Shown here: positions 27,064 through 49,572 of the stretch, in pieces
Numbering within the stretch: the stretch's first letter is position 1
How the letters are laid out: each line of letters opens with the position of its first letter
Notes under the pieces: model-generated
The model's database searches: none
Seen by the model: the letters and a program-made list of their open reading frames with translations, nothing else
Told to the model about the DNA's origin: nothing
Source of the DNA: Arenicellales bacterium
GTDB lineage: Bacteria > Pseudomonadota > Gammaproteobacteria > Arenicellales > Poriferihabitantaceae
NCBI GenBank assembly: GCA_965200715.1
Contig: OZ241374.1
Span: 2,725,031 to 2,789,030, forward strand
DNA length: 64,000 nt
Direction of reading: 5' to 3'
Position numbers and translations under genes: made by a program

Positions 27064-29218
27064 TGAGTTACTGGAATCTTCAACTTCCAGTGTACCTAGA
27101 TCCGACTACGAAACACTGTTCGCAGACCTGAACGGAACGCTTGAAGAATATCTGGATCCGCAATCGATCTCCGATATTTTCAAAGCAACCATTTTTGGTG
27201 CTAACGCTCACAAGGGCCAGAAACGCAAGAGCGGAGAAGATTTCATCTATCATCCCATGGCAGTCGCCAAGATACTGGGCGAAATGCGCATGGATAGTCG
27301 TACCATCATCGCAGCCATATTGCATGATGTTATTGAAGATACCGATACCTCCCTCAAACGACTAGAAAAGAAATTTGGACGGGAAATTGCTCATCTCGTC
27401 AATGGAGTTAGCAAAGTCAACCATCTTGAGGAGCAAACTTCTCGCAAGCATGCCGAGGCGGTGTCGTTTGGCAAAATGTTCGTAGCTACTGCTGATGATA
27501 TTCGAGTGATCATCATCAAACTTGCCGACCGACTGCACAATATGACCACACTGGATTCGCTGGACCGCGATCGACAAAATCGGATTGCTCGTCAAACCCT
27601 TGAAATTTATGCGCCTGTCGCCTATCGACTCGGAATGTATGATCTCGCTCTCAAGCTTGAGGATCTAGGATTTCAACGACTGTATCCCTGGCGACACAAA
27701 ACCTTGGGTCGGGCAGTACAGACCACCTCTAGTGCGCGCAAAAAAATGGTTCGCCGGGCCAGTAAGCAAATTGCCGATGCTCTGGCCAATGATGATATTG
27801 AAGTTAGCATTGTCAGCAAATCCCTCTACTATATCTATCGCACCATGGAAAAAAGTGGCATCACTCTCCATGACATTAAGGACATATATTCGATACGCAT
27901 CATCACACGTACCCGCCAGCAATGCTACGAATCCATTGGTGTAGCACATGAGGTATTTCGTCCTTTGCCGGGAAATTTCAAAGATTTCATTGCAATCCCG
28001 AAAACCAATGGTTATCAGTCCCTGCATACCATGATTGTTGGTCCAAATGGTCAGGCAATCGAGATTCAGGTTCAGACTCGGGCCATGCATATCATCGCAA
28101 AATCCGGTGTGGCCTCACTTAATATGCCCGATGAAATTCTCAATGAGGAAGGCTTACCCACAAAACATCTAGCCCATGAATGGGTAAGTAGCATAGTTGA
28201 GTCACATGAACTATCAAGTACCTCAGGCGAGTTTATGGAGCATCTGAAAACTGCCTTATTTCCAGATGAGGTTTATGTATTCACCCCAAAAGGTGATATC
28301 AAGCGCTTGCCAGTTGATGCTACCGCACTGGATTTTGCCTATTCGGTCCACACAGATATCGGTAACGAAAGTATTGGTGCTATTGTCAATGACCAGCCTG
28401 TGCCCCTGCATGAGGTTCTGAATAACGGAGACCGAATCGAAATTAAGACCCGCAAACCAGCAAATCCAAATATCTCGTGGTTAGATTTCGTAACCACTTC
28501 TCGAGCCAAAACCGCAATCCGTCATCATTTCAATATCCAGAGAAAGCAACAAGCTCTGCAATTTGGCAAGAAATTACTGTTTACGGCCCTGCATAACGTA
28601 GGGTACACGCGGCGTATCTCAGAGACAGAAAAAAATCGTTTACTCAAAGAGCTTAAGATCGATACCTGGAATCAGTTGCTCTCTGATATCGGATCGGGAT
28701 CACGACTCCCACTACTGGTCGCCCGTCAATTAGCCGACCTTTCCTCGGAGAATATCGAAGCGCTCGATTCTGCGACTACAACGAACTTGACGATTGAGGG
28801 CACGGAAAATCTGGTTGTTACCCACTCCAAGTGTTGCTATCCTGTTCCGGGCGACAAAATCTATGGCATATATTATCCGGGTAAAGGGTTGGTGGTCCAC
28901 CGTAATCAGTGTTCGAATACGAATGTAAGAACGCAACCACTTGAAAATTGTGTTCACCTGAACTGGTCAAAGGATATCATCGGATGCTATGAAGCCAGTC
29001 TGATTGCCGAAATTGCTGACGAGCCCGGAATGCTTTGGAAAGTAGCCGGAATCATTGCCAATCACGACTCCAATATCAACGGTATCACCATGAATGCCGA
29101 ACCTTTCGGTACAGCGCGCCTGTCGATTTTGCTCTTGGTTCGAAACAACCAACACCTCGCAAAGATTATTCGAGATCTGGAGTCTACATCGACAGTATAT
29201 AAAGTATACCGGCCATGA
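27017..29218 (+). CDS. spoT: Bifunctional (p)ppGpp synthetase/hydrolase SpoT/RelA family
   Basis: HD domain ([10 protein letters not shown]...LHDVIEDT), RelA/SpoT synthetase domain (YRTMEKSGI...YQSLHT), and TGS and ACT-like C-terminal regions. The only canonical start, ATG 27017, overlaps rpoZ by 47 nt. Confidence 0.9.
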
Positions 29219-29679
29219 ATAGGGTCTTATTTGTTTGTCTAGGAAATATCTGTCGCTCTCCGAGTGCAGAAGGCATATTTCGAAAAATTGTCCAGGCGAA
29301 AGGGTTTGAAGATGCATTTGAAATCGATTCTGCCGGAACGGGCGATTGGCACATCGGCCATACTCCTGATCAACGAGCGCAACAGGCGGCTAGTCGTCGT
29401 GATGTCGACTTGTCTGCCTTGAGGGCACGGCAGTTGAGTATTGAGGATATCATCTACCATGACTTAATCTTGGTTATGGATAGACGGAACCGGGCAGATG
29501 TAGTCTCACTGGCACAACCCGAACATGAGCATAAAATTCGCTACTTGCTGGAATACAGCGAGCAATATGATGGACTCGAAATACCTGACCCATATTATGG
29601 AGGTACGCATGGATTTGATTTGGTACTGGACATGATCGAAGATTCCTGCAAACGATTACTTAATTCCATCATCGAGTGA
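29215..29679 (+). CDS. Low-molecular-weight protein-tyrosine phosphatase
   Basis: Active-site loop VLFVCLGNICRSPSAEG and the DPYYG motif. Confidence 0.85.
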   Translation: MNRVLFVCLGNICRSPSAEGIFRKIVQAKGFEDAFEIDSAGTGDWHIGHTPDQRAQQAASRRDVDLSALRARQLSIEDIIYHDLILVMDRRNRADVVSLAQPEHEHKIRYLLEYSEQYDGLEIPDPYYGGTHGFDLVLDMIEDSCKRLLNSIIE

Positions 29680-30170
29680 TGACCTTCAAATCAAATATTG
29701 AGATCAATCTCTCAGACCAAACCTTGACACTCTATTGTGCTGAGGGAACGACTCGACAAACCTATCCGGTCTCGACAGCAAAGAAAGGTCCCGGACAAAT
29801 CATGAACAGTAATTGCACTCCGCTAGGTAAGCACATCATTCGCGCTAAGGTTGGTGATGGACAACCGACCAATACCGTGTTCCGAGGGCGTCGACCAACA
29901 GGGGAAATTTATCGATTTGATATGCGAGAGGTTGAACCGGAAAGAGACTGGATACTAACACGTATTCTCTGGCTCAGTGGTCTTGAGATTGGCTATAACC
30001 GATTGGGCAATGTCGACACCATGCGACGCTATATCTACATCCATGGCAGTCCCGATGAAATTGAACTTGGACAACCCGGCTCGCATGGTTGTATTCGTAT
30101 GAGTAATACAGATGTGATTCATCTATTTGACTCTATTCCTGTAGGCACGCCGGTACTGATTTATGTCTAA
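29676..30170 (+). CDS. L,D-transpeptidase (YkuD) domain protein
   Basis: IYIHGSPDE...GQPGSHGCIRMSNTDVIHLF is the catalytic His/Cys motif. Confidence 0.8.
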   Translation: MMTFKSNIEINLSDQTLTLYCAEGTTRQTYPVSTAKKGPGQIMNSNCTPLGKHIIRAKVGDGQPTNTVFRGRRPTGEIYRFDMREVEPERDWILTRILWLSGLEIGYNRLGNVDTMRRYIYIHGSPDEIELGQPGSHGCIRMSNTDVIHLFDSIPVGTPVLIYV

Positions 30171-31158
30171 CTTGCCACTTGGTCCATTGATTATTGATTT
30201 CTCTGGCGAAACACTGGGTTCAGAGGAAAGGACATTACTCCAAACAGCCGCTATTGGTGGAGTTATCCTTTTTTCCGATAATTACCGATCACGACAGCAG
30301 TTAACAGAATTGACTGGTGAAATTCGGAGTTTGCGTACCCCACCCCTTCTGATTTGTGTTGATCAGGAAGGTGGTCGAGTACAACGCTTTCGGGATGGTT
30401 TTTTCCGCCTGCCAGCTGCAAAGGAGATCGGGCAAGCATATGAGCAAGATATGCAGATCGGTCTACAACTCGCCCGAAAAATGGGCATTATTATGGCTGG
30501 AGAATTGGTTCTAGCGGGGGTGGATATTAGCTTTGCTCCTGTTCTGGATTGTGCACACCCAAAGAGTCAGGTTATCGGCGACCGAAGCTTTAGCGCTGAC
30601 CCAAATATGATTGCCTCATTAGCCGGAGAATTTGTTAGAGGTATGTGCCAAGCGGGTATGGCAGCTACCGGCAAACACTATCCCGGTCATGGCGGTGTGA
30701 AGGAGGATTCACATGAGCTACAGCCCGTGGATAGTCGCGATTTATCCGCACTATTCGACAAGGATCTTTTACCGTTTCGAAAATTAGCTAAACAATTGTC
30801 TGGAATAATGACGGCACATGTCCAATATCCCAAGATCGACACAACGATTCCCTGTTTTTCGCCTTATTGGCTCGTTACGGTATTACGCCAACGTCTGGGA
30901 TTTACTGGTATTATCTTCAGTGATGATTTAACAATGGGCGGTGCAGAGCAAGGCGGGAAGCCCATTGAGCGTGCTCTTTCAGCATTAGAAGCTGGATGCG
31001 ACATGATTCTTGTATGCAAGGACCGAGAAGCAGTGCTTGAAATTGCTGAACAACTTGGAGACAACCATAACCCAAACCCCAGCAAAATCAATCGCCTTTA
31101 TTCGAAGCAGAAATTATCGGAACTCGATCTGACCATAACCCGATCTTCTCTCGGGTAA
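30163..31158 (+). CDS. nagZ: Beta-N-acetylhexosaminidase NagZ
   Basis: GGVILFSDNY, ICVDQEGGRVQRF, KHYPGHGGV.EDSH and IIFSDDLTMGGA motifs of GH3 NagZ. Confidence 0.9.
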   Translation: MSNLPLGPLIIDFSGETLGSEERTLLQTAAIGGVILFSDNYRSRQQLTELTGEIRSLRTPPLLICVDQEGGRVQRFRDGFFRLPAAKEIGQAYEQDMQIGLQLARKMGIIMAGELVLAGVDISFAPVLDCAHPKSQVIGDRSFSADPNMIASLAGEFVRGMCQAGMAATGKHYPGHGGVKEDSHELQPVDSRDLSALFDKDLLPFRKLAKQLSGIMTAHVQYPKIDTTIPCFSPYWLVTVLRQRLGFTGIIFSDDLTMGGAEQGGKPIERALSALEAGCDMILVCKDREAVLEIAEQLGDNHNPNPSKINRLYSKQKLSELDLTITRSSLG

Positions 31159-31583
31159 GTGAGTGGCTAACTACCAAATATTAAATCACAGTGTACAAAC
31201 ACTGAGCTTATGACAATATCGACATAACTAACCAAAGGGAACCTTACGAATCTTTGAATTGAGTTGGATAGGATAGTGACCAACCCATATCACAGTCTAG
31301 TTTTATTGGCTTGCTAACCGAGTGCTACTTTATTGAAAAACAAGTCTTCAGATATCCATGTTAGCGGAGTGAACTATTCCACCCACTGTCAATTTCTCGT
31401 TGTAACCAAGTAAATAACAGGACATCCCAGAGAAGTGGAAACTCTCCATTTACTTTTTTTTAGGGATTCCTTATTGATTCTTATTACCTTACTCAATGAC
31501 CTAGATGCTTTACGCCTTCACCGATGACCACTAAAAATGCAATTATCATGTAACCAATAGACAAGTTTTTGATATACTTCTAT

Positions 31584-31599
31584 ATTGTTAACGAACAAT
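31584..31599. promoter_or_regulatory. Inverted repeat ATTGTT-AACG-AACAAT upstream of the sterol operon
   Basis: 6-bp perfect arms with a 4-nt spacer, 51 nt upstream of the first start codon (31650), inside a 491-nt AT-rich leader. Confidence 0.2.
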
Positions 31600-31649: not shown

Positions 31650-32744
31650 ATGGCAAAAAATTCTACAATAAAGAAGAATTCACCGTCTGCACCGGTACTC
31701 ATAACAGGTGCAGGGGGACATCTCGGTGCTAACCTTGTCCACCGACTTCTAGATGATGGTGTCAAAGTCAGAGTGTTGGTGCGCGCGGAGAGTAAAAATG
31801 AGGCTATTCAGGGTCTGAATGTTGAGCGCTTTTACGGCGACCTCCGTCAAAAAGAAAGTCTAAGACCGGCTCTTGAAGGATGTCAGGGGGTCTATCATGT
31901 TGCTGCTAGAATTGCTACGATTAATGGCAATAAACAGTTCCGGCGAGAACTGTATGAATGCAATGTTGTAGGCACTCGCAACCTGCTTGAGGTCGCCCGT
32001 GAATGTGAGGCGGGTCGGGTAGTCGTAACCGGATCATTTAGTGCTGTAGGATACGACTTGGATAATCCTTCCTTGCCGAGTGATGAAACGATGCAGTTTT
32101 ATCCTCTGGAACGCACAATGCCCTACGAGCGAACCAAGGCATTTGTGGAACATGAGTGCTGGCAAGCAGTGGCGAAAAATCAGGATGTGGTCGTTGCTAC
32201 TTGTTGTGCATTAATGGGAGGTTGGGATTATCATCCATCCAGACTGGGTCGAACGCTTGTTGATTACGCAAACGGAAAACTTCGGGCATATGTCGATGGA
32301 GGCTTTGAATTCGTAGCTGCAAGGGACATTGTAGAGGGACATATCCTGTGCATGCACAAAGGTCGTCCAGGAGAAAAATACATCTTCAGCACTGAATTCA
32401 AGACGATCTCAGAAATTTTGGATATTTTTGAAGAAGTGACTGGCATACCTCGCCCGGCTAAACGTGTACCCGCAAAATTGATGGAAATGTTTGCTGAGGT
32501 AGCCAGTTTTTATTTGAGCCATTTTCACCCATCCTTTCCACAGCGATTTACCCCAGGAGCCATTCGTCTTCTTCAATTATGTCGGCATGCAAACACTCAG
32601 AAAGCTCAAGAGGAACTTGGATTCGAGCCATCCACAATTCGTCAAGCTGTTAAAGATGCATATGAATTTCACTATAATCAGCGTAAGGTGATTACCAATC
32701 CGGATGCAAAACCTCCGGAAGAAGTGGCTTCAGTCGCCGAATAA
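31650..32744 (+). CDS. Extended-SDR NAD(P)-dependent reductase/dehydrogenase, SdmB-like (candidate sterol C-4 demethylation partner / 3-ketosteroid reductase)
   Basis: Rossmann motif ITGAGGHLGANLV, catalytic PYERTK (YxxxK), and 3beta-HSD/dihydroflavonol-reductase-like length. It is the first gene of an operon with a Rieske oxygenase, a sterol reductase, CYP51 and an OSC. Confidence 0.6.
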   Translation: MAKNSTIKKNSPSAPVLITGAGGHLGANLVHRLLDDGVKVRVLVRAESKNEAIQGLNVERFYGDLRQKESLRPALEGCQGVYHVAARIATINGNKQFRRELYECNVVGTRNLLEVARECEAGRVVVTGSFSAVGYDLDNPSLPSDETMQFYPLERTMPYERTKAFVEHECWQAVAKNQDVVVATCCALMGGWDYHPSRLGRTLVDYANGKLRAYVDGGFEFVAARDIVEGHILCMHKGRPGEKYIFSTEFKTISEILDIFEEVTGIPRPAKRVPAKLMEMFAEVASFYLSHFHPSFPQRFTPGAIRLLQLCRHANTQKAQEELGFEPSTIRQAVKDAYEFHYNQRKVITNPDAKPPEEVASVAE

Positions 32745-32789
32745 TAATCTTGTCGTTTTATATATACGAAAATATCGAGGTAAGTTAGA

Positions 32790-33905
32790 ATGAATTTACA
32801 AGCTACTACCGAAGCACCACCTGGATTTTACGATTCAAACAACCTACGCCAGAAAGTGCGTGCTACGGGCTTGGACCCAAATTACTGGTATGCCGTCGAA
32901 GTAGCCCAGAATATAAAGCCGGGCTCGGTCACTGAGGTTATTTTCTGGAAACAATCCATCGCCCTGTATCGAACCAAACAGGGGGATTTTCATGCGCTTG
33001 AGAATCGCTGCGCACATCGCCAGATCAAACTCTCACTAGGTGATGTTGATGGCTGTACTCTGGTTTGCCCCTATCATGGCTGGTCCTATGATAACTGTGG
33101 ACGCCGTGCTGATAATCGCAAGGAAGGAGACAATCCCGAAACAATACGACCATCAATCACTAGTTATCCCGTAAAAGTACGATACGGGCTAGTCTGGTTA
33201 TTCCCCGGTGATCCGGAACGGGCTACAGAACAGGAAATTCCTGATATCCCTGAACTTGAAGGGAAAGATCGTTGGTCTTGTGTTCCACTCAATTTCACCT
33301 GGTCTGCACACCACTCAATGGTAATTGATAATGTAAGCGATTTTACCCACGCACACCTGCACCGAAAATACCGACCTTTTGAAGGCGCAACACTGACAAA
33401 GTTCGAGACGATCGGGGACGATGTCCACCTTTCCTACGACACCCAAGTTGGACGTGGTCGTATTTCAGGATTATTTGTCGACCACAAAAAACTGAACACC
33501 AATCAGATGGACCTGTGTTACAAATATCCGTATCAATGGTCAAATACGGATGATGCGATCAAACATTGGTTGTTTGTCTTACCGATAAACGAGCGGACTA
33601 CTCGGGTATTCTTTTTCTTTTATTTTAAAACGCTAAAAGTTCCCTATCTTCCTGTACGTATCCCTCGCGTCATAATGGATTTGATTATGCGAATTTCTAG
33701 CCGCTGGCTAATTGCACCGCTACTAGATCAGGATCGGTATGCGATTGAGGCTGAACAGGAAGGATATGAGAAGTTCTGGGATGCGCATCCAGTTGAATTT
33801 AACCCAGTGGTCAAGGCATTTCAGGAAGTAACCGTTCGCAAGTGGCAGGAGTTTCTGGAATCCAAAAAAATTGAAGGGCAATCGCCGAGCCATTCAACTA
33901 GTTAA
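32790..33905 (+). CDS. Rieske [2Fe-2S] non-heme-iron oxygenase, SdmA-like (candidate sterol C-4 methyl oxidase)
   Basis: Rieske ligands CAHRQ...CPYHGW (33009-33077), the mononuclear iron motif DNVSDFTHAHLH, and the operon context. Confidence 0.65.
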   Translation: MNLQATTEAPPGFYDSNNLRQKVRATGLDPNYWYAVEVAQNIKPGSVTEVIFWKQSIALYRTKQGDFHALENRCAHRQIKLSLGDVDGCTLVCPYHGWSYDNCGRRADNRKEGDNPETIRPSITSYPVKVRYGLVWLFPGDPERATEQEIPDIPELEGKDRWSCVPLNFTWSAHHSMVIDNVSDFTHAHLHRKYRPFEGATLTKFETIGDDVHLSYDTQVGRGRISGLFVDHKKLNTNQMDLCYKYPYQWSNTDDAIKHWLFVLPINERTTRVFFFFYFKTLKVPYLPVRIPRVIMDLIMRISSRWLIAPLLDQDRYAIEAEQEGYEKFWDAHPVEFNPVVKAFQEVTVRKWQEFLESKKIEGQSPSHSTS

Positions 33906-33911
33906 CATTCC

Positions 33912-34991
33912 GTGATTGAACTCACACTTACAGGAACGTCGCTACTGGTAGCTAGTACGTTGTTAATCGGTTTCTGCGGACTGTTGTTCGTGGGTTCGAT
34001 CATCGCACCGGGACCCAAAATCGAAACCACACGTTCCGATGGCACAACTTTCGTCTATAAACTAAATGGGCTCAGCCTGTTTTTGTTTACGACTGCGGTA
34101 ATGATACTAGCCCACTATTTCGGCTGGTTTTCACTCTCCATATTAATAACATACTTTCTGGAACTCTTTATCGTAACCAATATATTCGCCTTTGCAGTGT
34201 CTTTGTGGCTGTACCTAGAAGGAAAAAATTCACAAACCGAACCGTCAAGTTTCTTGAAAGGCTATTATTATGGCGTCACACTAAATCCAACCCTATGTGG
34301 TGTTGATCTAAAAATTTATAGTTATCGACCTTCACTCATTGGTCTAGCTTTGTTTAATGCCTCATTTGCAGCGGTGCAATATGAGACCTATGGATCCCTG
34401 ACTTTAGCGATGATCATTTATCAGGGCTTTACTTTTCTGTACATACTGAATTATTTCCACTTCGAAAACGGAATGATCTTTACATGGGATATAGTTAGCG
34501 AAAAGTTTGGTTGGATACTGGTCTGGGGTGATTTTGTTCTGGTTCCGTTCTTTTACTGTATTTGCGGTTGGTATCTTGTGCATACCCCTGATTTGCTCTC
34601 GCCATTAGCGGCTACATTGCTAATTATGCTTTATATTTTTGGATTCTGGATGTTTCGTGGAACCAATAACCAGAAGCACCGTTTCAAATCCAACCCAAAC
34701 ATCAAGATTTGGGGACAACCTGCTGAATCACTCGATGGTCGTCTATTGGTCTCTGGATTTTGGAGTTGGGGCAGACATATGAATTATACTGGAGAAATTC
34801 TAGTGTATTTCTCATTCTTTCTGACTACCTGTTTTGTATCGTGGGTACCACTGTTATTACCGTTATGGCTCACCGGCTTGTTGATTCATCGTTCCTTTCG
34901 TGATGAAATGCGCTGCAATGCCAAGTATGGTGAATTATGGCAACGTTATAAGCAACGTGTCCGCTATACCATGTTTCCACCAATCTACTAG
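33912..34991 (+). CDS. ERG4/ERG24-family sterol reductase (C-14 reductase type most likely)
   Basis: A polytopic membrane protein with the family signature LLVSGFWSWGRHMNYTGEIL and the C-terminal HRSFRDEMRCNAKYG. GTG start 6 nt after the upstream stop. Confidence 0.75.
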   Translation: MIELTLTGTSLLVASTLLIGFCGLLFVGSIIAPGPKIETTRSDGTTFVYKLNGLSLFLFTTAVMILAHYFGWFSLSILITYFLELFIVTNIFAFAVSLWLYLEGKNSQTEPSSFLKGYYYGVTLNPTLCGVDLKIYSYRPSLIGLALFNASFAAVQYETYGSLTLAMIIYQGFTFLYILNYFHFENGMIFTWDIVSEKFGWILVWGDFVLVPFFYCICGWYLVHTPDLLSPLAATLLIMLYIFGFWMFRGTNNQKHRFKSNPNIKIWGQPAESLDGRLLVSGFWSWGRHMNYTGEILVYFSFFLTTCFVSWVPLLLPLWLTGLLIHRSFRDEMRCNAKYGELWQRYKQRVRYTMFPPIY

Positions 34992-35002
34992 AAGAATCTG
35001 TC

Positions 35003-36403
35003 ATGTCACAAACCGCTGAAAGCGTGAATGGTTCTGGTCCGTTGATGCGGATGCCAACAATGAGTGGGGGTTGGCCGTTGCTGGGTCATCTGCCCGGCTT
35101 TCTGAAAGACCCTGTTTCGTTATTAACCCGTGGATGGAGTGCTGAGGGCGATCTATTCCGCTTCAAGATTGGTTTCAGTAACTTTGCTCTGTTCACGGGA
35201 CTTGAAGCACATGATTTCTATTTTCGAGCCGGTCAGGATGAATTGAGTGCGAAAGCCTGTTATCAGTTCACGGTGCCTATTTTTGGTAAGGGGGTAGCCT
35301 ATGATGTTGCACCTGAGCTGATGGCTGAACAATTGGGCTTTCTATTTCCTGCACTGCGTGATAATGCAATGCGCAGATATGCCAAGATTATGTATCATGA
35401 GGTCTGCATGTATGCTGATTCGCTTGGCAAAGAAGGTCAACTCGACCTACCCGCAGCTTTGAATGAACTCACGGTCAGAAACGCAAGTCATAGCCTGATT
35501 TGCAAGGAAGTTAGGCATGAAGCAAGCAGTGAATTTGCTGCGGCCTATCATGAATTACAAAACGGGATCAACACACTCGGGTTCTTCTTTCCGAATTTGC
35601 CCACGGCCGCACATCGATCCCGAGACCGGGCACGACAAAAAATTCACCAGATTTTCAGCAAAATCATGGAAAAACGACGACGTGAAGGTTCGGATGAACA
35701 AGACTTCATGCAAACCCTCATGGAAGCCCGATATAAAGATGGTAGGGCGCTAACTGATGATGAGATATCCGGCATTTTGGTTACCGTTTTATTTGCAGGA
35801 CAGCATACTAGCGCAGTCTTGGGTACTTGGACAATGCTGGAGCTGATGCGAGATACTGCCTATCTGGCTCGTGTCCGGGAAGAAAACGAGAAACTGTATT
35901 CAGATACTGGTTTTATGGAACTGACCACTCTCAAGCAACAGAGCATCCTAGAATACGCAATTCGTGAAGGTGAACGATTACATCCTCCACTCATCCTGTT
36001 AATCCGTAAGGTCTTGAAACCTTTAGTATATAACGGTTACGAAATACCTGTTGGTACTCTTGCGATGGTCTCGCCTGCGGTTTCGCACCGGTTAGAGCAT
36101 ATTTTTTCTGATCCAGAACGATTCAATCCTGATCGATATGCACCCCCAGCAAGAGAAGATAAACAACACCACTACACGCTGATCGGTTTTGGTGGAGGTA
36201 AACACCGGTGTATGGGCAAGGCCTTTGCGATTCTTCAACTGAAGATCGTTCTAGGGGTATTGTTTGATCGCTTCGACTTCAGCATTAATTCGTGCTTCCC
36301 GCTTCCCAACTATCGTAGCTGGGTTACTGGACCAACAGAACCCTGCCTAGTCAATTACAAACGACGCTTGGAACCCAGCATTCTCAAAACAGAGGTGGCA
36401 TGA
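35003..36403 (+). CDS. cyp51: Cytochrome P450 sterol 14-alpha-demethylase (CYP51), no ferredoxin domain
   Basis: CYP51 B'-helix signature YQFTVPIFGKGVAYD, I-helix FAGQHTS, and heme loop FGGGKHRCMGKAFA (Cys codon at 36209-36211). Confidence 0.85.
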   Translation: MSQTAESVNGSGPLMRMPTMSGGWPLLGHLPGFLKDPVSLLTRGWSAEGDLFRFKIGFSNFALFTGLEAHDFYFRAGQDELSAKACYQFTVPIFGKGVAYDVAPELMAEQLGFLFPALRDNAMRRYAKIMYHEVCMYADSLGKEGQLDLPAALNELTVRNASHSLICKEVRHEASSEFAAAYHELQNGINTLGFFFPNLPTAAHRSRDRARQKIHQIFSKIMEKRRREGSDEQDFMQTLMEARYKDGRALTDDEISGILVTVLFAGQHTSAVLGTWTMLELMRDTAYLARVREENEKLYSDTGFMELTTLKQQSILEYAIREGERLHPPLILLIRKVLKPLVYNGYEIPVGTLAMVSPAVSHRLEHIFSDPERFNPDRYAPPAREDKQHHYTLIGFGGGKHRCMGKAFAILQLKIVLGVLFDRFDFSINSCFPLPNYRSWVTGPTEPCLVNYKRRLEPSILKTEVA

Positions 36404-39400
36404 CTTCTAAATACGATGTTGCGATAGTAGGGGGCGGACCCGTTGGTAGTGTCTGCGCCCTAGCTCATGCCCGCAAGGGTTCTCACGTCGTAATGCTTGA
36501 GGCAAATCCAAAATCCGCTTATCGATTGGCAGGAGAGTGGTTGCATCCACCTGCTGTCCGGATTCTAGAGGAATTAGGTGTTCAACTAGACATCGAGTGT
36601 GAACAGCCGATTGGCAAGGGTTTTGCAATTTTTCCAGAAGATGGAACCGAAGCAATTCGCTTCCCCTATTCCAAAAATGCCCGAGGTTTCTCCTGTGAGC
36701 ATTCGACACTTGTTGCTTCGATCCACAAAACGGTCATCAATCAGCCAAATATTGATTTTCTACTCGATGCTCGGGCTGTAGCCGTTGAAGATGGACTCAT
36801 TGAGTACACTTACCAAGGAGCAAAAGAAACTATCCATGCACCTCGAATTATTGGTGCCGATGGTCAGGCTTCAATTGTTCGTCAGTCACTAGGCTTATCG
36901 GTCAATCCAAAAATCATCTCCCAAACTGTTGGGATCATATTGAATGATGTCGAATTGCCACTTGAGGGTTATGGGCATGTGTTTCTAGGCGGACCTGGAC
37001 CGATTTTGATTTATCGCTTGTCTGAAGGGCAGGTCAGACTTATTTCGGATATTCCTCAAGATCGCACTTCTCCGAGGGATCGAATTTCCTTTTTACTGGA
37101 TTCATATACCGAGATTTTGCCCGATACAATCAAGCCTTCTTTCATGGAAGCATTGCGCATGAAGAAATTTCAGATTGCCATAAACAAGGTCAGGCCGCAT
37201 GTTACATATGGAAATTCCAAGCGGATTCTGATTGGCGATGCTGCTGGACACTATCACCCAATGACTGCCATGGGTATGACTTTCGGATTTGCAGACGCTT
37301 TTGCGCTCGCTGAGCACGAAGATTTCAAGATCTTTACGCGCAAACGTTTTCGAGACACGCATACTCCATCATTCTTAGCTATGGGTTTATATGAGGTATT
37401 TGCGGATTATCATTCGGAGGCAGTTGCCATCCGACATGCAATCTATAGCAGAGCACGTGCAAGTTCGGGATTCCGAAATCGAACTATTCGATTATTAGCC
37501 TGTGACGACACATCGGCGATTCGCATGAACATTGCTTTTTTCAGCACGGTGGTTCAGGCGGTCTACAAACAGATTCCTTTCTCTCTGAATAAACTTGCTT
37601 GGCAAAAATCCTATAAAACGTTAGAGTCCTTGTGCAGACGGTTGTGGTGGCTCCTTTTGGCCATCAAACAGTTGTATAAAGTCAAATATCGGGGGGAGGA
37701 CATGGACGACCGGGCGTGGAACATGCTCTCCGGGGTGTTCAAGTTTTCGGTACCATTCCAGAAATCAAAGAATAAACAGACCAAACTAAGGGATAAACCA
37801 TCATCCGATGCGAGTCCAGCATTGCAATCAGCGATCGCCCAATTAGCGAATTTACAACGCAAAGACGGCTCGTGGGAAGGGGAGATGGTTTGGTGTCCGA
37901 TGCTAACTGCGCAATATGCACTGTTACATTACATTATTGGCAAACCATTGAGTGCGAAACGACGCAAGAATATTTTGCGTTCCTTTGTAAAGACCCGTTT
38001 CGATAATGGGACCTGGGGCATGCATGATCACTCTGATCCTCATCTGTTTGTGACCACACTGGTTTATATTGCTAGCCGATTGCTAGGTATTGAACGTGAT
38101 GATCCTATGTTGAAGCCCGCCCAAGAATTCATCGAGTCTGAAGGTGTTGTTAACGTCCCGAGTTGGGGTAAATTCTGGTTGGCAGTACTCAATCTCTATG
38201 AATGGCAAGGCGTCAATGCCGTATTGCCTGAACTCTGGGTTTTGCCGCGCTGGTTACCAATTCACCCATCCAAATGGTATTGTCATACTCGACTCATCTA
38301 CATGGCAATGTCAGTCATTTATGGACATCGCTTCCAGACATCCTTAAGTCCGGAGATCGAGTCGCTCCGTGAAGAGCTATACCCAAATGGGTTTGATCAG
38401 GTTGATTTTTCAAAAACCAGAAACCTATTACGGGAAGGAGATTTATTCGCCCGTCCACATTTTCTGTTGCGAGTAGCAAATAGTCTGACGAGATTTTATG
38501 AAGAACGGCATCACAAAACGACTCGAAAGCGATCGATGAATGAGATGAGTGAGAAAATCAAGTGGGAATTACAGACTACCGATCACACTAGTATTTCTCC
38601 GGTCAGTGGTACGCTAAATATTCTTGCATTATGGTTACAGGACAATGAAAACCCGGATGCGAAACGTGGCCTCGATCAACTGGAAGGTTGGGTTTGGGAA
38701 GACAAGACAGATGGAGCTAGAGTAACCGGTGCCAGAAGCGGATCTTGGGATACTGGATTTGCACTTCAGGCACTACAACCGGTTTCTAGTTTCGATGGCA
38801 CCACAAGAATCATGAAGTCTGGCGCTCGGTTTTTGACTGAGAATCAGATCAGAACCAGTTTTGAGGGTTATTCCGAGTCTTATCGCAATGATCCGAGAGG
38901 TGGATGGTGTTTTGCTGGAGGATGGCACGGATGGCCAGTATCTGACTGTACCGCAGAAGCGGTGCTTGGTTTGATTGCTTTTCATGGCAAGGCTGCGGAC
39001 AAATCTGCAATCAAGGATGCTATCGAATTCATGTTGCGTGCGCAAAATCGCGATGGCAGTTTTGGCAGTTATGAATCCATCCGTTCCAGAATTGGGCTTG
39101 AGTGGCTGAATCCGGCTGAGATGTTTGGCGAATCAATGACAGAAGGTGCATATGTTGAATGTACAGCTTCCTGTCTTGAAGCTTTCAGTGCTTGTAAGGA
39201 GAATTTTCCGGATCTGGTCAATACCCAAGTCATGAACGCAATCATCAAGGGCGATGCTTGGTTACGAAAGACTCAGCGAGCCGATGGTTCTTGGCGAGGT
39301 GTTTGGGGAATTCAGTATATCTATGGTACCTTGTTCGGTATTCGGGGTCTAATGGCTACTGGAGCAAAACCAAGTGATCCTGCACTAAGATTGGCCTGTC

Positions 39401-39867
39401 GATGGCTTTTGGATCGCCAACACGATGATGGCGGATGGGGTGAGCACCATAGTGGTTGTATGAGCGGCGAGTATGTTGACCATAAAGAGAGTCAAGTCAT
39501 TCAAAGTGCCTGGGCTTTGATCGCTCTGCAGGTTGCAAGAGATGCTAGCTGGAACGCTATTTCCAGAGGAGCACAATATCTACTTGATATGCAAAATGAA
39601 GATGGCTCTTGGCCAAAGCAGGATATGGCAGGTGTGTTTTTTAGAACAGCGTTGCTGGATTATGTTTTATATCGACAGTATTTTCCGATTCATGCACTGG
39701 GGCTGTATGAAAAAAATCGCCATATTAGAATGAATCTGGCTACTTCTGTAATATCCATGCAGGAATCAGCAGATATCAATACCAGAGACGAAACATTGAT
39801 ATCTCCGGTCAATCAACCCAATTCTTCAACGGACCAAGACCGTGCTCTTGCATCTACTGCAAAATAG
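36400..39867 (+). CDS. Fusion protein: FAD-dependent squalene monooxygenase (aa 1 to ~440) + oxidosqualene cyclase (aa ~475-1155)
   Basis: A single uninterrupted 1155-codon ORF. The N-terminal part has VAIVGGGPVGSVCALAHARKG and GDAAGHYHPMTAMGMTF (the squalene epoxidase motif). The C-terminal part has repeated QW motifs (RAQNRDGSFGSY, RKTQRADGSWRGVWG, LDRQHDDGGWGEH, LDMQNEDGSWP) and the catalytic GWPVSDCTAEA (Asp codon at 38944-38946). The ATGA overlap with the cyp51 stop couples the two genes. Confidence 0.85.
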   Translation: MTSKYDVAIVGGGPVGSVCALAHARKGSHVVMLEANPKSAYRLAGEWLHPPAVRILEELGVQLDIECEQPIGKGFAIFPEDGTEAIRFPYSKNARGFSCEHSTLVASIHKTVINQPNIDFLLDARAVAVEDGLIEYTYQGAKETIHAPRIIGADGQASIVRQSLGLSVNPKIISQTVGIILNDVELPLEGYGHVFLGGPGPILIYRLSEGQVRLISDIPQDRTSPRDRISFLLDSYTEILPDTIKPSFMEALRMKKFQIAINKVRPHVTYGNSKRILIGDAAGHYHPMTAMGMTFGFADAFALAEHEDFKIFTRKRFRDTHTPSFLAMGLYEVFADYHSEAVAIRHAIYSRARASSGFRNRTIRLLACDDTSAIRMNIAFFSTVVQAVYKQIPFSLNKLAWQKSYKTLESLCRRLWWLLLAIKQLYKVKYRGEDMDDRAWNMLSGVFKFSVPFQKSKNKQTKLRDKPSSDASPALQSAIAQLANLQRKDGSWEGEMVWCPMLTAQYALLHYIIGKPLSAKRRKNILRSFVKTRFDNGTWGMHDHSDPHLFVTTLVYIASRLLGIERDDPMLKPAQEFIESEGVVNVPSWGKFWLAVLNLYEWQGVNAVLPELWVLPRWLPIHPSKWYCHTRLIYMAMSVIYGHRFQTSLSPEIESLREELYPNGFDQVDFSKTRNLLREGDLFARPHFLLRVANSLTRFYEERHHKTTRKRSMNEMSEKIKWELQTTDHTSISPVSGTLNILALWLQDNENPDAKRGLDQLEGWVWEDKTDGARVTGARSGSWDTGFALQALQPVSSFDGTTRIMKSGARFLTENQIRTSFEGYSESYRNDPRGGWCFAGGWHGWPVSDCTAEAVLGLIAFHGKAADKSAIKDAIEFMLRAQNRDGSFGSYESIRSRIGLEWLNPAEMFGESMTEGAYVECTASCLEAFSACKENFPDLVNTQVMNAIIKGDAWLRKTQRADGSWRGVWGIQYIYGTLFGIRGLMATGAKPSDPALRLACRWLLDRQHDDGGWGEHHSGCMSGEYVDHKESQVIQSAWALIALQVARDASWNAISRGAQYLLDMQNEDGSWPKQDMAGVFFRTALLDYVLYRQYFPIHALGLYEKNRHIRMNLATSVISMQESADINTRDETLISPVNQPNSSTDQDRALASTAK

Positions 39868-39930: not shown

Positions 39931-40398
39931 TCACCTGCCTTTTGTGACTTGTTCGGAAATCCGGTCGAAAAAATAGCCAATCTGCTTTTTTGCAAAAGGT
40001 TTGATCACTAATGCTCCAATTTTTGCTAGTGGCCCATATACCACTATTTCAGCAGAATAATTGATACGCGCATTATCCTCATCCATGGATTCAAGTCTGA
40101 CATCTGCTTTCGCTTCCGCAGTGACTTGATCATCACTTTTAACCGAGACTTGCAGTTTATATTTCTCGATAGCGTTACTGTCAATGATCTTTAGTTTTGC
40201 GGAATAATGGTTTTGGACTGGACCAATCTTAATATGAAAAAGGGCAATATACTCGCCATGGTCCAATCGATTGACCTCATAGCAACTGTTCAAGCATGCT
40301 TTCAGGATTTCGGGATCAGTGATCGCTTGCCATAAACGCTCTGCAGATAGAGGGACCGCATAACTGGAATTAATTTTCATATCTTCCAACTTGTTCAA
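39931..40398 (-). CDS. SRPBCC superfamily protein, CoxG-like (START-like ligand-binding fold)
   Basis: The sequence ...AVPLSAERLWQAITDPEILKACL...YGPLAKIGALVIKPFAKKQIGYFFDRI follows the CoxG family pattern over its full length. Confidence 0.7.
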   Translation of the reverse strand: MNKLEDMKINSSYAVPLSAERLWQAITDPEILKACLNSCYEVNRLDHGEYIALFHIKIGPVQNHYSAKLKIIDSNAIEKYKLQVSVKSDDQVTAEAKADVRLESMDEDNARINYSAEIVVYGPLAKIGALVIKPFAKKQIGYFFDRISEQVTKGR

Positions 40399-40537
40399 TT
40401 TGTCTCAATTTTCAGATATTTTCTATATACTAGAAAATGCAACAGTTTAAACCATTGAAAATTGGTCAGTATTTCACATATTTTTGCATTCAAGTATAAT
40501 CTATTTATGTTCATTACTCTAAATATGAATAGAACTT

Positions 40538-41368
40538 GTGTATAACTCTCGACTCCAATCAAATACTAGTGATATCAATTTATCTGAGCAATTTCAGAAT
40601 CTTGGTTGGCTTCATTTCAAATTTGACCCTGCTCTTCTCAAGTGGGTTGATCATGTACTGCCCTATGCAAGAGCCGCAGTAGCCGCTCCCGAGAATGCCG
40701 AATGGTTACGTTGTGGTGGCACTTGGTTTGTAGGAGTCAACCTACTGCCCAATAATTTACAAGGCCGAGTTGATGATTCAGATCCAATTAGCGGGGAAGC
40801 AATCTCGTTTCTCAAGAATAATCATGCATTTACTGGATTTAATCTGGACAAGGCACAGATATCCGTCTGTTATCCTGGATATCCGAAACCTTCCGAAACT
40901 GAATTCGGTTCCACGTATCGCTACCGCCGTAATCGTGATGGTGCACATATTGACGGACTGCTCGCAATTGGAGCGGACCGTCGTCGATACCTGAAAGAAC
41001 CTCATGCTTATATACTCGGGATTCCAATGACCGACTTCAACGCTGATGCCGCACCCCCGGTTGTATGGGAATCTTCGCATAACATTGTTCGCGCTGTATT
41101 CCGGGAATTCTTTTCTGATATCCAAGAGGAACTATGGGCAGATGTCGATATCACCAATACCTATCATCATCTTCGCAAAGAAGTATTTGACAAATGCCAA
41201 CGCATTCAACTGAAACTGAAACGAGGAGAGTCCTTCCTAGTTCATCGATTGGCATTACATGGCATTGGCCCATGGGGTGAAACTGCTAGAGCTGGTCCTG
41301 ATGGTAGGATGATCTGCTATTTCAGACCAAAATTCAAAAGTCCAAGTGAATGGCTATGTGCACCATAA
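40538..41368 (+). CDS. Hypothetical protein, possible PhyH-like Fe(II)/2-oxoglutarate oxygenase
   Basis: Candidate HxD (GAHIDG), a mid-region VVWESSH and a distal His (FLVHRLALHG) are spaced as in PhyH-type dioxygenases. This is a weak, motif-only call. Confidence 0.3.
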   Translation: MYNSRLQSNTSDINLSEQFQNLGWLHFKFDPALLKWVDHVLPYARAAVAAPENAEWLRCGGTWFVGVNLLPNNLQGRVDDSDPISGEAISFLKNNHAFTGFNLDKAQISVCYPGYPKPSETEFGSTYRYRRNRDGAHIDGLLAIGADRRRYLKEPHAYILGIPMTDFNADAAPPVVWESSHNIVRAVFREFFSDIQEELWADVDITNTYHHLRKEVFDKCQRIQLKLKRGESFLVHRLALHGIGPWGETARAGPDGRMICYFRPKFKSPSEWLCAP

Positions 41369-41490
41369 TCTTTGGGTTGAATCGAAATTATTTCGACAGA
41401 CAAGTACATGTGAATACATATTTCATCAAACTCTATCAATCGAGTTATCTATCCCACAATGGTTCACTTGTCTCATAATGCTCCCACAAT

Positions 41491-42111
41491 ATGAAAATTA
41501 GCGATTATCTGAACAATTTTCCATCTGATATCCCAATCAATATCATCGGACCACTATATCGCTCTGGCCCGCTACAAGAACCCGTTTTATTCATCGATGG
41601 AGGGACCAATTACCGCTGCAACGATTCTGGGCTATCTGTAGGCGATGGCGACTCATCGGAATTCCCTTTGGATATCCTTCTTTCGATCAATAAGGATTTT
41701 TCCGATCTTGCTTATGCTCTTTCTGCCATTCCATCTCATTTTTCCAATGTCTACCTATATGGATTTCTGGGCGAACGGCGTGACCACGAATTATTCAACC
41801 TAGGTGCAGCACACCGATTTCTCGAAAACCGTAGCCAACCCTCAACAATCCAATTCGAGCAAACTATCATCGGCTATACTGCTGGGAGATGGAATTTTCA
41901 AAGAGATGGTCTGTTTAGTATCCTGTGCCTCAAAGATACCTGGTTAACCTTACATGGTGAGTGTAACTATCCGTGTCAGGACCGTACTCAGTTCCAAGTA
42001 TTGGACTCACTAGGCTTAAGCAATGTTGGTCATGGTGAAATCGATTTGCAAAACGAAGGTCCGGTTTTTGTTATCTTTGAAACTCCAACCAAATACCAAC
42101 ATAGAACATAA
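41491..42111 (+). CDS. Thiamine pyrophosphokinase-like protein
   Basis: FIDGGTN, VGDGDSS, NKDFSDLAYAL and GFLGERRDHELFNL mirror the TPK catalytic-domain motifs. Confidence 0.6.
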   Translation: MKISDYLNNFPSDIPINIIGPLYRSGPLQEPVLFIDGGTNYRCNDSGLSVGDGDSSEFPLDILLSINKDFSDLAYALSAIPSHFSNVYLYGFLGERRDHELFNLGAAHRFLENRSQPSTIQFEQTIIGYTAGRWNFQRDGLFSILCLKDTWLTLHGECNYPCQDRTQFQVLDSLGLSNVGHGEIDLQNEGPVFVIFETPTKYQHRT

Positions 42112-42116
42112 CGGTC

Positions 42117-42983
42117 ATGAATGATCTATTCGATTTTAAGCCAAAACCTACCAGATTCGCTGTTATGGGAAATCCGATCGAACATAGTCGATCACCGGAA
42201 ATTCACCGTGAATTCGCCTTACAGACCAGCATTAATCTGGAATATGACCGAATCCGGGTTGACGGAGGGTTTAATCAGGCTGTCAGTCATTTCCAAGCTA
42301 GTAATGGAGCTGGATTGAATATTACAGTTCCATTCAAGGTCGATGCCTGGAAACTCTGTACTCGGACAGGCAATCAGCTAAGCACAAGAGCTGATAGTGC
42401 CAGAGCTGTCAATACCCTTCGTTTTCAAGAAAAAGACACCATATATGGAGACAATACCGATGGAATCGGATTGGTTACCGATCTTCAGCAAAATATTGGT
42501 TTTGCTATTGAAGAATCATCAATATTGTTGGTTGGTGCAGGAGGTGCGGTACGAGGCGTGCTTGGACCGCTGATTGAATGTTGCCCAAAAAGCATTGAAA
42601 TAACGAATAGGACGATGAGTAAAGCCTCTGACTTGGCTGAGTTATTCGGTGAGAAAGTTAGCGCTGTAACCATAGAGGAAACTACTCGGAGGAAATACGA
42701 TTTGATCATCAATGGGACTGCGGCAGGTTTACATGGGCAATTGCCTGAACTAAAGCCAACTTGCGTTCGTTCAAATACTCTAGCATATGATATGGTCTAT
42801 GGCTTGCAGACTACACCTTTTATGGAATGGGCGCTAGACAACGGAGCCTATGCTGTCCATGATGGATTGGGGATGCTGGTCGAACAGGCAGCTGTCTCAT
42901 TTCACTTGTGGCATGGCATTCACCCACAAACCAAACCTGTAATTGAACTGATTAGCAAAATTCATCATGTCAGGAATTCATGA
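42117..42983 (+). CDS. aroE: Shikimate dehydrogenase
   Basis: FAVMGNPIEHSRSPEIH, GLNITVPFK, NTDGIG and VGAGGAVRGV motifs. Confidence 0.9.
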   Translation: MNDLFDFKPKPTRFAVMGNPIEHSRSPEIHREFALQTSINLEYDRIRVDGGFNQAVSHFQASNGAGLNITVPFKVDAWKLCTRTGNQLSTRADSARAVNTLRFQEKDTIYGDNTDGIGLVTDLQQNIGFAIEESSILLVGAGGAVRGVLGPLIECCPKSIEITNRTMSKASDLAELFGEKVSAVTIEETTRRKYDLIINGTAAGLHGQLPELKPTCVRSNTLAYDMVYGLQTTPFMEWALDNGAYAVHDGLGMLVEQAAVSFHLWHGIHPQTKPVIELISKIHHVRNS

Positions 42984-43866
42984 AAAGCCTTTGGTAATTG
43001 CAATCTCTTCTCGGGCGCTTTTCGATCTAACGGAAAGCCATCAAGTTTATTCTTCAGAAGGAGTCGATGCCTACTGTGAATATCAAATTAAACACGAAAA
43101 CGAGATCCTTGAACCTGGGGTGGCATTTCTCATGGTTCAAAAATTTCTAGCGCTCAATCAAGCGAAAAACGAACAGCGATATCCATGTGTAGAAATTGTC
43201 CTGATCTCTCGAAACAGTGCCGACACCGGCCTTAGAATTTTCAATTCTATTGAACACTATCAATTGAATATTACCCGAGCTGCCTTCACATCTGGTGGGA
43301 TCCCTTACAAGTACGTATCACCATTTGGCGCCGATTTGTTTCTCTCAACTGACCCTCAAGATGTCAGCCAAGCATTGTTGAATGGACATGCTGCCGCGAC
43401 CATCCTTCCATCACAGGCTAGAGATGATCCAGATGATTTACTTCGCATTGCTTTTGATGGAGATTCCGTGCTCTTTTCGGATGAATCTGACAAAATCTAT
43501 CGAGAACAAGGAATTGATGGATTTGCAAAACACGAGAAAAAGAATGCCAATCATCCACTTCCCGGTGGCCCATTCAAGAGTTTTCTTGGGACGCTTCATC
43601 GTATTCAGAAAGAGCATTCTGATTCACCTATTCGAACCGCCTTGGTTACCTCACGTTCTGCACCTGCCCATGAAAGAGTAATCAAAACTTTACGTGCTTG
43701 GGATATCCGAATTGATGAGAGTTTTTTTCTAGGTGGTATGAAGAAAGGAATATTTCTAAAATGCTTTGGCGCAGATATCTTTTTTGATAATCAACAAGTG
43801 CATTGCGATACGGCTCGCCAATATGTAACAACTGGCCATGTGCCGATCGACTCTCAACCCGATTGA
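42967..43866 (+). CDS. 5'-nucleotidase family protein (Legionella cN-II-like family)
   Basis: The N-terminus PLVIAISSRALFDLTESHQVY..GVDAYCEYQ, plus RIAFDGDSVLFSDESD and ALVTSRSAPAHERVIKTLRAW, fit the bacterial '5-nucleotidase' family. Confidence 0.7.
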   Translation: MSGIHEKPLVIAISSRALFDLTESHQVYSSEGVDAYCEYQIKHENEILEPGVAFLMVQKFLALNQAKNEQRYPCVEIVLISRNSADTGLRIFNSIEHYQLNITRAAFTSGGIPYKYVSPFGADLFLSTDPQDVSQALLNGHAAATILPSQARDDPDDLLRIAFDGDSVLFSDESDKIYREQGIDGFAKHEKKNANHPLPGGPFKSFLGTLHRIQKEHSDSPIRTALVTSRSAPAHERVIKTLRAWDIRIDESFFLGGMKKGIFLKCFGADIFFDNQQVHCDTARQYVTTGHVPIDSQPD

Positions 43867-49568: not shown

Positions 49569-49572
49569 TACG

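Follow-up and report, generated by a model that had tools for sequence, protein, structure and literature searches.

A probable msbE-type squalene epoxidase–oxidosqualene cyclase fusion at the end of a predicted five-gene sterol operon in an Arenicellales bacterium

The window, the whole stretch of 64,000 nucleotides analyzed here (contig OZ241374.1 of assembly GCA_965200715.1, an Arenicellales bacterium, positions 2,725,031 to 2,789,030), contains a gene that joins a squalene epoxidase and an oxidosqualene cyclase (OSC) in one 1155-residue polypeptide. Our reading, to which we assign a probability of about 0.85, is that this gene is an ortholog of msbE, a natural epoxidase–cyclase fusion of sponge symbionts, that it ends a five-gene sterol operon, and that its product works as follows. 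The N-terminal flavin adenine dinucleotide (FAD) domain would convert membrane-dissolved squalene to (3S)-2,3-oxidosqualene using O2 and electrons from a host reductase encoded outside the operon. Amphipathic helices (residues 398–446) would keep the protein at the membrane surface, and a short tether of fixed length would hold the cyclase beside the epoxidase. D849, activated by C850 and C921, would protonate the epoxide, after which the cyclase would fold the substrate to the protosteryl cation and, given V847, release lanosterol. CYP51, ERG24, and SdmA/B would then strip the 14α-methyl group along with one or two of the methyl groups at C-4.

The fused gene is a single open reading frame (ORF) of 1155 codons plus a stop, with an ATG start and zero internal stops in both the ORF listing and the translation, in agreement with an earlier note on this DNA made from the letters alone. 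On the 1155-residue protein, Pfam places FAD_binding_3 at residues 4–304, SE (PF08491) at 147–391, SQHop_cyclase_N at 476–769, and SQHop_cyclase_C at 781–1104. The polypeptide is thus laid out as an epoxidase-type flavoprotein (1–446), a coil (447–471), an OSC (472–1109), and a disordered tail, and these Pfam assignments together with the structural matches given below bear out the claim of the note that two complete enzymes reside in one chain. An AlphaFold2 model of the two-domain chain, computed with 88 homologs as input, attains a mean predicted local distance difference test score (pLDDT) of 75.3 and a predicted template modeling score (pTM) of 0.78.

The fusion recurs well beyond this assembly. 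Independent assemblies contain the identical 1155-residue protein on at least five contigs, two of which exceed 1 Mb, and one of these exact copies stems from the metagenome sample ROBB21-1 (SAMN13943198). The database representative, P0001, departs from the window protein by a single difference, F381I (nucleotides 37540–37542), which is strain-level variation; its NCBI name, [quoted passage not shown], conceals the cyclase half. A search of 5.8 billion proteins returned 738 relatives, and the best 120 clusters (at 90% identity) are all 1113–1174 residues long and carry both domain sets. Among genomes, with one taken per GTDB species, 358 relatives were found; the best 80, which make up the related loci L001–L080 discussed below, are all full-length fusions in a single frame, covering residues 1–1100 or more, and many of them sit on complete long-read chromosomes. 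The search for orthologous fusions that the note had proposed therefore yielded full-length examples among all of the best matches. In an alignment of 88 fused homologs, on which all conservation values below are based, the linker shows single-residue gaps at worst, and no stop or frameshift, the events that the note had named as evidence against the fusion, occurs there in any relative.

The N-terminal half is identified as a squalene epoxidase by family, structure, and motif. PF08491 scores 97 bits on residues 147–391, above its curated cut-off of 20.1. The closest solved relative of residues 6–389 is human squalene epoxidase (SQLE; 6C6N) with an E value of 5e-30, the next flavoprotein family following at 1e-7, and Foldseek gives a target-normalized TM-score of 0.77 against 6C6N and of about 0.67–0.75 against PHBH/PqsL-type enzymes. 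The motifs quoted in the note, VAIVGGGPVGS, GDAAGHYHPMTAMGMT, and VSDCTAE, are all present. In the first of these, the conservation of G11, G13, P14, and G16 is 90% or higher; the second aligns with the human second flavin motif of the GDAxNxRHPLTGGGMT type, and G279, D280, A281, G283, Y285, H286, P287, A290, and G292 are invariant. On the basis of this sequence evidence, the N-terminal half is predicted to carry out squalene 2,3-epoxidation using O2 and an external reductase.

The C-terminal half resembles human lanosterol synthase in both sequence and fold. This enzyme (1W6K) is the best solved match of residues 475–1104 (E 2e-128), and to it Foldseek assigns a target-normalized TM-score of 0.80. 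TIGR01787, the model for squalene/oxidosqualene cyclases, scores 509 bits and exceeds its cut-off of 322.7, and the hopene cyclase model reaches merely 261 bits. The acid motif is of the OSC type, VSDCTAE, as opposed to the DxDD of squalene–hopene cyclases, and its residues V847, D849, C850, and E853 are invariant. The counterparts of further human active-site residues, including those for deprotonation and cation stabilization (H232, Y503, W387, F444, W581, F696, and Y704), were taken by hand from the 1W6K alignment and are given in Table 1. Catalytic residues of both halves are intact and invariant across the 88 relatives, the opposite of the loss that the note had listed as a refutation. 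Four strict QxxxGxW motifs (486, 959, 1007, and 1065) and two degenerate ones were found, so that the “at least 5” of the note is slightly generous.

The region between the two enzymes combines a membrane-associating element with a flexible tether. In the AlphaFold2 model, helices 309–391 are the counterpart of the SQLE helical domain and are followed by a long (398–431) and a short (437–446) helix; the first cyclase helix begins at 472. The stretch 401–422 is amphipathic, with a hydrophobic moment of up to 0.53 compared to a protein-wide 95th percentile of 0.44, and no 19-residue segment of the 1155-residue protein is sufficiently hydrophobic for a transmembrane helix. These two properties fit a monotopic membrane protein, like both parent enzymes, and substantiate the amphipathic helices with which the epoxidase had been proposed to end. 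The basic, Ser-rich linker of the note is likewise real: residues 447–471 are modeled as coil, with pLDDT below 50 at 454–465, and contain six lysines and four serines in 25 residues.

Linker sequence and linker length behave differently. The identity to the 88 relatives is 26% in the linker, compared to 60% in the epoxidase core and 67% in the cyclase, and one-residue linker gaps occur in merely 1–3 of the 88 sequences. The spacing between W417 and G490, both invariant, is 73 residues in every sponge-clade member examined and ranges from 44 to 91 residues in distant fused clades. Because of the low identity, the near-zero gaps, and the constant spacing, the tether is, as far as sequences can tell, free in sequence and constrained in length within the sponge clade; this constraint is not universal among such fusions. 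The linker as a conserved functional element of all fusions is ruled out by its 26% identity and by the length range seen elsewhere. The C-terminal tail that the note had described is also present and disordered (pLDDT 27–33), with a gap fraction of 0.5–0.6, a top-residue frequency of 0.17, and 10% identity to relatives. It is a lineage-specific disordered extension and not a family feature.

The fusion closes a tightly packed series of five genes, whose intergenic gaps are 45, 6, 11, and −4 bp. The TGA stop of CYP51 overlaps the ATG of the fusion by 4 bp (ATGA), and a Shine-Dalgarno-like GAGGTG lies 5 nt upstream of that ATG. The first two genes encode a short-chain dehydrogenase/reductase (SDR) and a Rieske oxygenase, for which the best NCBIfam models are SdmB (NF052578, 313.5 bits) and SdmA (NF052579, 398.6 bits), respectively, each under its 600-bit cut-off; the two genes are conserved in 70 and 74 of 81 loci. 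The best PDB match of the CYP51 is the enzyme of Methylococcus capsulatus (6MCW, E 1.7e-103), limited to the P450 part, as the window CYP51 has no ferredoxin domain. Collectively, the five genes are predicted from sequence to encode the conversion of squalene to oxidosqualene and lanosterol, followed by 14-demethylation, C-14 reduction, and C-4 demethylation. Squalene synthase, sterol methyltransferase (SMT), and redox partner genes were not encountered in the scanned parts of the window.

Several observations weigh against the assignment of an active lanosterol-forming fusion: (i) the position of human SQLE Y195 is occupied by F75 (nucleotides 36622–36624), which is invariant in the fused family, (ii) the best NCBIfam model of the cyclase, TIGR03463 (2,3-oxidosqualene cyclase, residues 480–1102), scores 729.6 bits, under its cut-off of 851, (iii) the active-site loops 838–846, 891–917, and 1076–1086 have low pLDDT in the AlphaFold2 model, (iv) two of the product-specificity residues, A778 and H843, fit neither the lanosterol nor the cycloartenol consensus, (v) the operon encodes no electron donor, and no ferredoxin, flavodoxin, or reductase gene accompanies its redox enzymes (CYP51, the Rieske oxygenase, and the epoxidase), and (vi) no enzyme assay, product, or structure of any fused member was found in the literature searched. 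With respect to the first point, phenylalanine is found at the Y195 position in 60 of 62 bacterial homologs, whether of this fused family, otherwise fused, or single-domain. F75 is therefore a bacterial-type trait and not a defect of the fusion, and its interpretation as the mark of an inactive epoxidase is ruled out. In human SQLE, Tyr195 contacts inhibitors such as NB-598. The phenylalanine may matter for the catalytic model and for the inhibitor sensitivity of bacterial epoxidases.

Likely advantages of the fusion are a 1:1 stoichiometry, co-localization on the membrane, where oxidosqualene has little distance to diffuse, and the joint transfer of both steps; true tunnel-type channeling is only a possibility. 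A more specific proposal is that the fixed tether sets the product exit of the epoxidase against the membrane-facing channel of the cyclase, such that oxidosqualene would be handed over outside the bulk membrane pool and 2,3;22,23-dioxidosqualene avoided. We consider this doubtful, and if true, such a self-contained “sterol synthase” would explain the spread of the cassette through about nine sponge-symbiont phyla. 2,3-Oxidosqualene is a stable membrane lipid intermediate, and the premise of a labile compound in need of channeling is accordingly weak.

The strongest rival, which comes close to an even chance, is a bifunctional protein devoid of kinetic channeling, in which oxidosqualene equilibrates with the membrane pool and the fusion is kept for stoichiometry or co-expression, for folding of the cyclase, or for easier transfer. 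The poor conservation of the linker, its variation in length from 44 to 91 residues between independent clades of fusions, and the occurrence of close OSC relatives in unfused form (P0129 and P0130) all speak for it, and the variable linker and unfused relatives lean toward the absence of a defined inter-domain geometry. A role in folding is suggested by the lanosterol synthase of M. capsulatus, which was rescued by an N-terminal fusion partner (PMC12146001), and easier transfer is suggested by cross-phylum identities of 82–90%, which show the cassette spreading as a unit. On the other side, the linker length is near-invariant in the sponge clade despite sequence drift, and a pTM of 0.78 is a hint that the two domains are arranged in a defined way; these features of sequence and model lean slightly toward a defined geometry and are not decisive.

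The identity of the cyclase product is a separate matter. The product-specificity positions 381, 449, and 453 of the human enzyme correspond to A778, H843, and V847, all three invariant. Because the first two fit neither consensus, the product call derives from V847. In bacteria, the product has been predicted by position 453 only, with Val denoting lanosterol and Ile cycloartenol, and among the bacteria tested the correlation between V453 and lanosterol production was complete (Wei et al., 2016; PMC4919349). Lanosterol is therefore the best guess, made from one residue. The rival reading is that the cyclase yields another product (cycloartenol, parkeol, or a different triterpenol) or that the operon, instead of making a membrane sterol, supplies the scaffold of a specialized metabolite, for example the 30-norlanostane aglycone of sarasinosides. 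In its favor, A778 and H843 deviate from the lanosterol consensus (T; C or Q), histidine being the cycloartenol-type residue, TIGR03463 scores under its cut-off, and the msb locus has been proposed as the source of the sarasinoside core (PMC7074536). We regard it as unlikely given the behavior of V453 in every bacterium tested, the lack of a glycosyltransferase or SMT among the genes scanned around the operon, and a distribution over about nine phyla that fits a general membrane-lipid role better.

Two separate enzymes could also arise if the chain were split post-translationally or if the cyclase were additionally made from an internal start. The disordered, Lys-rich linker would be accessible to proteases, and Met434 and Met442 lie just upstream of it. 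These methionines are not conserved beyond close relatives, there is no evident conservation of an internal start or of a ribosome-binding context, and a constraint on linker length would be needless if the chain were cut; this scenario is very improbable. Finally, an assembly, binning, or sequencing artefact that merged two adjacent genes through stop/start loss or an indel is ruled out, because the exact protein occurs in independent assemblies and the same architecture, with a linker never interrupted by anything beyond one-residue gaps, recurs in the best 120 clusters and best 80 genome loci and is conserved over hundreds of genomes.

The msbE-type fusion travels with its operon. In a tblastn search with the five products, the same cassette was found in the same order in about 70 of the 80 related loci, with flanking genes that are common only to the closest relatives and differ elsewhere. 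The whole cassette (31650–39867) is found in about nine phyla at 57–72% identity to the window. The hosts are sponge-symbiont metagenome-assembled genomes (MAGs) of Gammaproteobacteria (Candidatus (Ca.) Poriferihabitaceae, Porisulfidus, Arenicellales, and Rariloculaceae), Alphaproteobacteria, Nitrospirales and Nitrospinaceae, Binatia, Thermodesulfobacteriota, Opitutales, Acidimicrobiia, and Vicinamibacterales and Bryobacterales. The fused proteins of Nitrospirales share 82% identity with those of Binatia and 80% with those of Acidimicrobiales, and the value between Binatia and Thermodesulfobacteriota is 90%. The lineage of the window, Ca. Poriferihabitaceae, is the most divergent branch with 56–60% identity to the others and 90% to Ca. 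Poriferihabitans, its closest genome; the other relatives are sponge MAGs, which places the window protein in a sponge-symbiont setting. The cross-phylum identities are far too high for vertical descent and point to horizontal transfer. This comparison of sequences identifies the cassette as a sterol module spread horizontally among sponge symbionts, which agrees with Kelly et al., 2022 (PMC9531527). The ORFs scanned around the cassette yielded no integrase, transposase, or tRNA, and there is no compositional signal of recent insertion, the GC content being 0.41–0.48 over the cassette and its flanks.

Fusions of this kind extend beyond the sponge clade. In a library of 50%-identity representatives, the entire sponge clade forms one cluster, and at least eight more fused clusters are found at 35–46% identity, six of them confirmed by Pfam and the rest by BLAST against the two halves. 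One of these, P0122, belongs to a sterol cluster that has another gene order and includes an EBP isomerase. In a neighbor-joining tree of the cyclase halves, most fusions share one region with a few unfused cyclases, and two divergent fusions branch elsewhere, which suggests one or few fusion events accompanied by fission or replacement, with a number that a distance tree cannot settle.

Other domain combinations were encountered in the same searches. P0189, P0200, and P0212 represent a second natural fusion type, in which a squalene epoxidase (residues 1–400) is joined to a squalene synthase (SQS_PSY, about 800–1097). Between the two parts, a weak cyclase-like remnant of the α/α toroid is detected in two of the three as SQHop_cyclase_C (P0189, 596–706, E 2.8e-5; P0200, 655–727, E 4.5e-6) and not in P0212. 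The type comprises 14 proteins of about 1030–1200 residues that form their own clade in the epoxidase tree, the three named being Pfam-confirmed. One of them is encoded at locus L084 (GCA_039186435.1; L084:1-2425) along with SdmB-like and SdmA-like proteins, an HMG-CoA reductase, a separate OSC, and an SMT. No mention of an epoxidase–squalene synthase fusion was found in the literature. In addition, P0191 (1022 residues) is a squalene synthase–cyclase fusion (SQS_PSY 29–327, cyclase 388–1020), and in P0210 (1063 residues) a cyclase is preceded by about 420 unassigned residues.

The surroundings of the operon consist of housekeeping genes: SpoT, guanylate kinase, ribonucleotide reductase, GH3, YkuD, shikimate dehydrogenase, and cytochrome c oxidase. 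The upstream flank (29215–31158) encodes a low-molecular-weight phosphotyrosine phosphatase, a YkuD L,D-transpeptidase, and a GH3 hydrolase, and the downstream flank (39931–43866) encodes CoxG, shikimate dehydrogenase, and a 5′-nucleotidase. Promoter-like and terminator scans of the region returned counts equal to the shuffled expectation, which leaves weak grounds for the promoter candidate of Table 1. Five ORFs of 218–474 residues are without a Pfam assignment. Those at 21702–23126 (+), 24741–25511 (+), 25447–26421 (+), and 48948–49607 (−) have no Pfam match at E < 1e-5, and the ORF at 40538–41368 (+), 276 residues long and just downstream of the cassette, has neither a Pfam match below 1e-3 nor an NCBIfam match. 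Conservation of the latter beside the cassette is confined to the closest relatives, L001, L003, and L004.

Table 1. Positions of the fused gene, its domains, motifs, and active-site residues, and of the remaining cassette features in the window
Feature	Residues	Nucleotides	Strand	Basis or remark
Whole fused gene, msbE-type (squalene epoxidase, linker, oxidosqualene cyclase)	1155 aa plus stop	36400..39867	+	
Squalene epoxidase (SQMO) domain: FAD Rossmann fold, substrate domain, C-terminal amphipathic helices	1–446	36400..37737	+	Pfam, 6C6N, AlphaFold2
GxGxxG FAD-binding motif	G11-G-G-P-V-G16	36430..36447	+	aligned to human SQLE GAGVLG
Second flavin motif GDAAGHYHPMTAMGMTF	279–295	37234..37284	+	aligned to human GDAYNMRHPLTGGGMTV
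Inter-domain linker (FKFSVPFQKSKNKQTKLRDKPSSDA)	447–471	37738..37812	+	predicted coil; sequence variable, length nearly fixed
Oxidosqualene cyclase domain, double α/α toroid	472–1109	37813..39726	+	Pfam SQHop_cyclase_N and _C, NCBIfam, 1W6K
VSDCTAE catalytic motif	847–853	38938..38958	+	D849 the predicted proton donor; alignment to 1W6K
Disordered C-terminal tail	1110–1155	39727..39864	+	non-conserved
Counterpart of human OSC D455 / C456	D849 / C850 (VSDCTAE)			invariant
Counterpart of human OSC C533	C921			invariant
Counterpart of human OSC H232	H629			invariant
Counterpart of human OSC Y503	Y891			invariant
Counterpart of human OSC W387	W783			invariant
Counterpart of human OSC F444	F838			invariant
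Counterpart of human OSC W581	W969			invariant
Counterpart of human OSC F696	F1080			invariant
Counterpart of human OSC Y704	Y1088			invariant
Sigma-70-like promoter candidate, TAGACA-17-TATATT		31558..31586	+	10/12 matches; sole argument is its position in the 491-bp gap before the first cassette gene
SDR / 3β-HSD-like reductase, SdmB-like (msbA equivalent), predicted sterol C-4 demethylation		31650..32744	+	Pfam Epimerase, 3Beta_HSD
Rieske [2Fe-2S] oxygenase, SdmA-like (msbB equivalent), predicted 4-methylsterol monooxygenase		32790..33905	+	Pfam Rieske, VanA_C
ERG4/ERG24-family sterol C-14 reductase (msbC equivalent)		33912..34991	+	Pfam PF01222, E 4.7e-65; conserved in 73/81 loci
CYP51 sterol 14α-demethylase (msbD equivalent)		35003..36403	+	Pfam p450; best PDB 6MCW

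The fused gene constitutes the entry step of an operon that is widespread among sponge symbionts. Bacterial sterol synthesis bears on the reading of sterane fossils, including the “sponge biomarker” debate, and on the question of which organisms inside sponges make sterols. A natural epoxidase–cyclase fusion also represents a ready-made part for the engineering of triterpenoid pathways in bacteria, which is limited by the solubility of the cyclase and the coupling of the epoxidase (PMC12146001). Recognition of the operon and of the fusion in the literature has so far been at the level of annotation, and although the gene itself has been described, a first biochemical and structural demonstration of the fused protein would be new.

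The fusion family is in fact already described and widespread in sponge symbionts, and the novelty of the gene is therefore low; the statement of the earlier note that such a fusion was not known does not hold. Mohanty et al., 2020 (Mar Drugs 18:124; PMC7074536) reported the fusion MsbE in the msb locus (MT026193.1) of a gammaproteobacterial symbiont of Melophlus sarasinorum and noted its diagnostic valine and flavin-binding residues, together with msbA–D encoding an NAD(P) oxidoreductase, a Rieske oxygenase, a sterol reductase, and a lanosterol demethylase. Judged by that published description, MsbE shares with the window protein an N-terminal epoxidase and a C-terminal cyclase with the diagnostic valine, its locus has the same gene order (NAD(P) oxidoreductase, Rieske oxygenase, sterol reductase, CYP51-type demethylase, and fusion), and its host, like that of the window, is a gammaproteobacterial sponge symbiont. 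The msb locus differs in the adjoining SMT gene msbF, for which the window scans gave no counterpart.

Kelly et al., 2022 (PMC9531527) described an ERG24–CYP51–“LSS” cluster (CSG) in 115 of 537 Ircinia MAGs from ten phyla, with evidence of horizontal gene transfer, strong purifying selection (“LSS” omega 0.17), and 74% nucleotide identity between MT026193.1 and their CSGs. The CSG length of 5910 ± 74 bp requires an “LSS” of 3.4 kb, that is, one of fused-gene size, and the LSS alignment of that study spans 3765 nt (PMC9531527). In the sterol cluster of an Aplysina aerophoba symbiont, “fused SMO/OSC homologs” were mentioned by Brown et al., 2023, in whose Supplementary Data the ERG1 and ERG7 queries match one gene (JGIcombinedJ30088_1000083512), followed by ERG11, ERG24, sdmA, and sdmB (PMC10070321). 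Neither Hoshino & Gaucher, 2021 nor a triterpenoid-cyclase survey (PMC12324236) discusses the fusion. The Ircinia CSG and the Aplysina cluster are the same operon as that of the window, the 5′ neighbors “DFR” and “hypothetical” of the CSG being the SdmB-like and SdmA-like genes. In contrast to the reading given here, Kelly et al. labeled the gene as LSS only, and unlike the window, these clusters often have an SMT or a squalene synthase at the 3′ end.

M. capsulatus performs the same two reactions with bacterial-type enzymes and has SdmA/SdmB and CYP51 in its pathway. Unlike in the window, its epoxidase and lanosterol synthase are two polypeptides, which we take to be encoded by the adjacent genes MCA2872 and MCA2873, and its CYP51 (CYP51fx) is fused to a ferredoxin. 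Both enzymes gave lanosterol in Escherichia coli, where the epoxidase was active without a eukaryotic P450 reductase and the lanosterol synthase alone was poorly soluble until joined to its N-terminal partner (PMC12146001). The human enzymes, SQLE (6C6N) and lanosterol synthase (1W6K), share with the window protein their folds, the FAD motifs, the cyclase acid, and the aromatic cation-stabilizing residues. They differ in that sequence identity is just 24% for SQLE and 33–34% for the OSC, F75 replaces Y195, and the two halves are covalently joined in the window. The window epoxidase, moreover, lacks the N-terminal regulatory/transmembrane region of human SQLE, and the window cyclase has no equivalent of residues 1–76 of human OSC.

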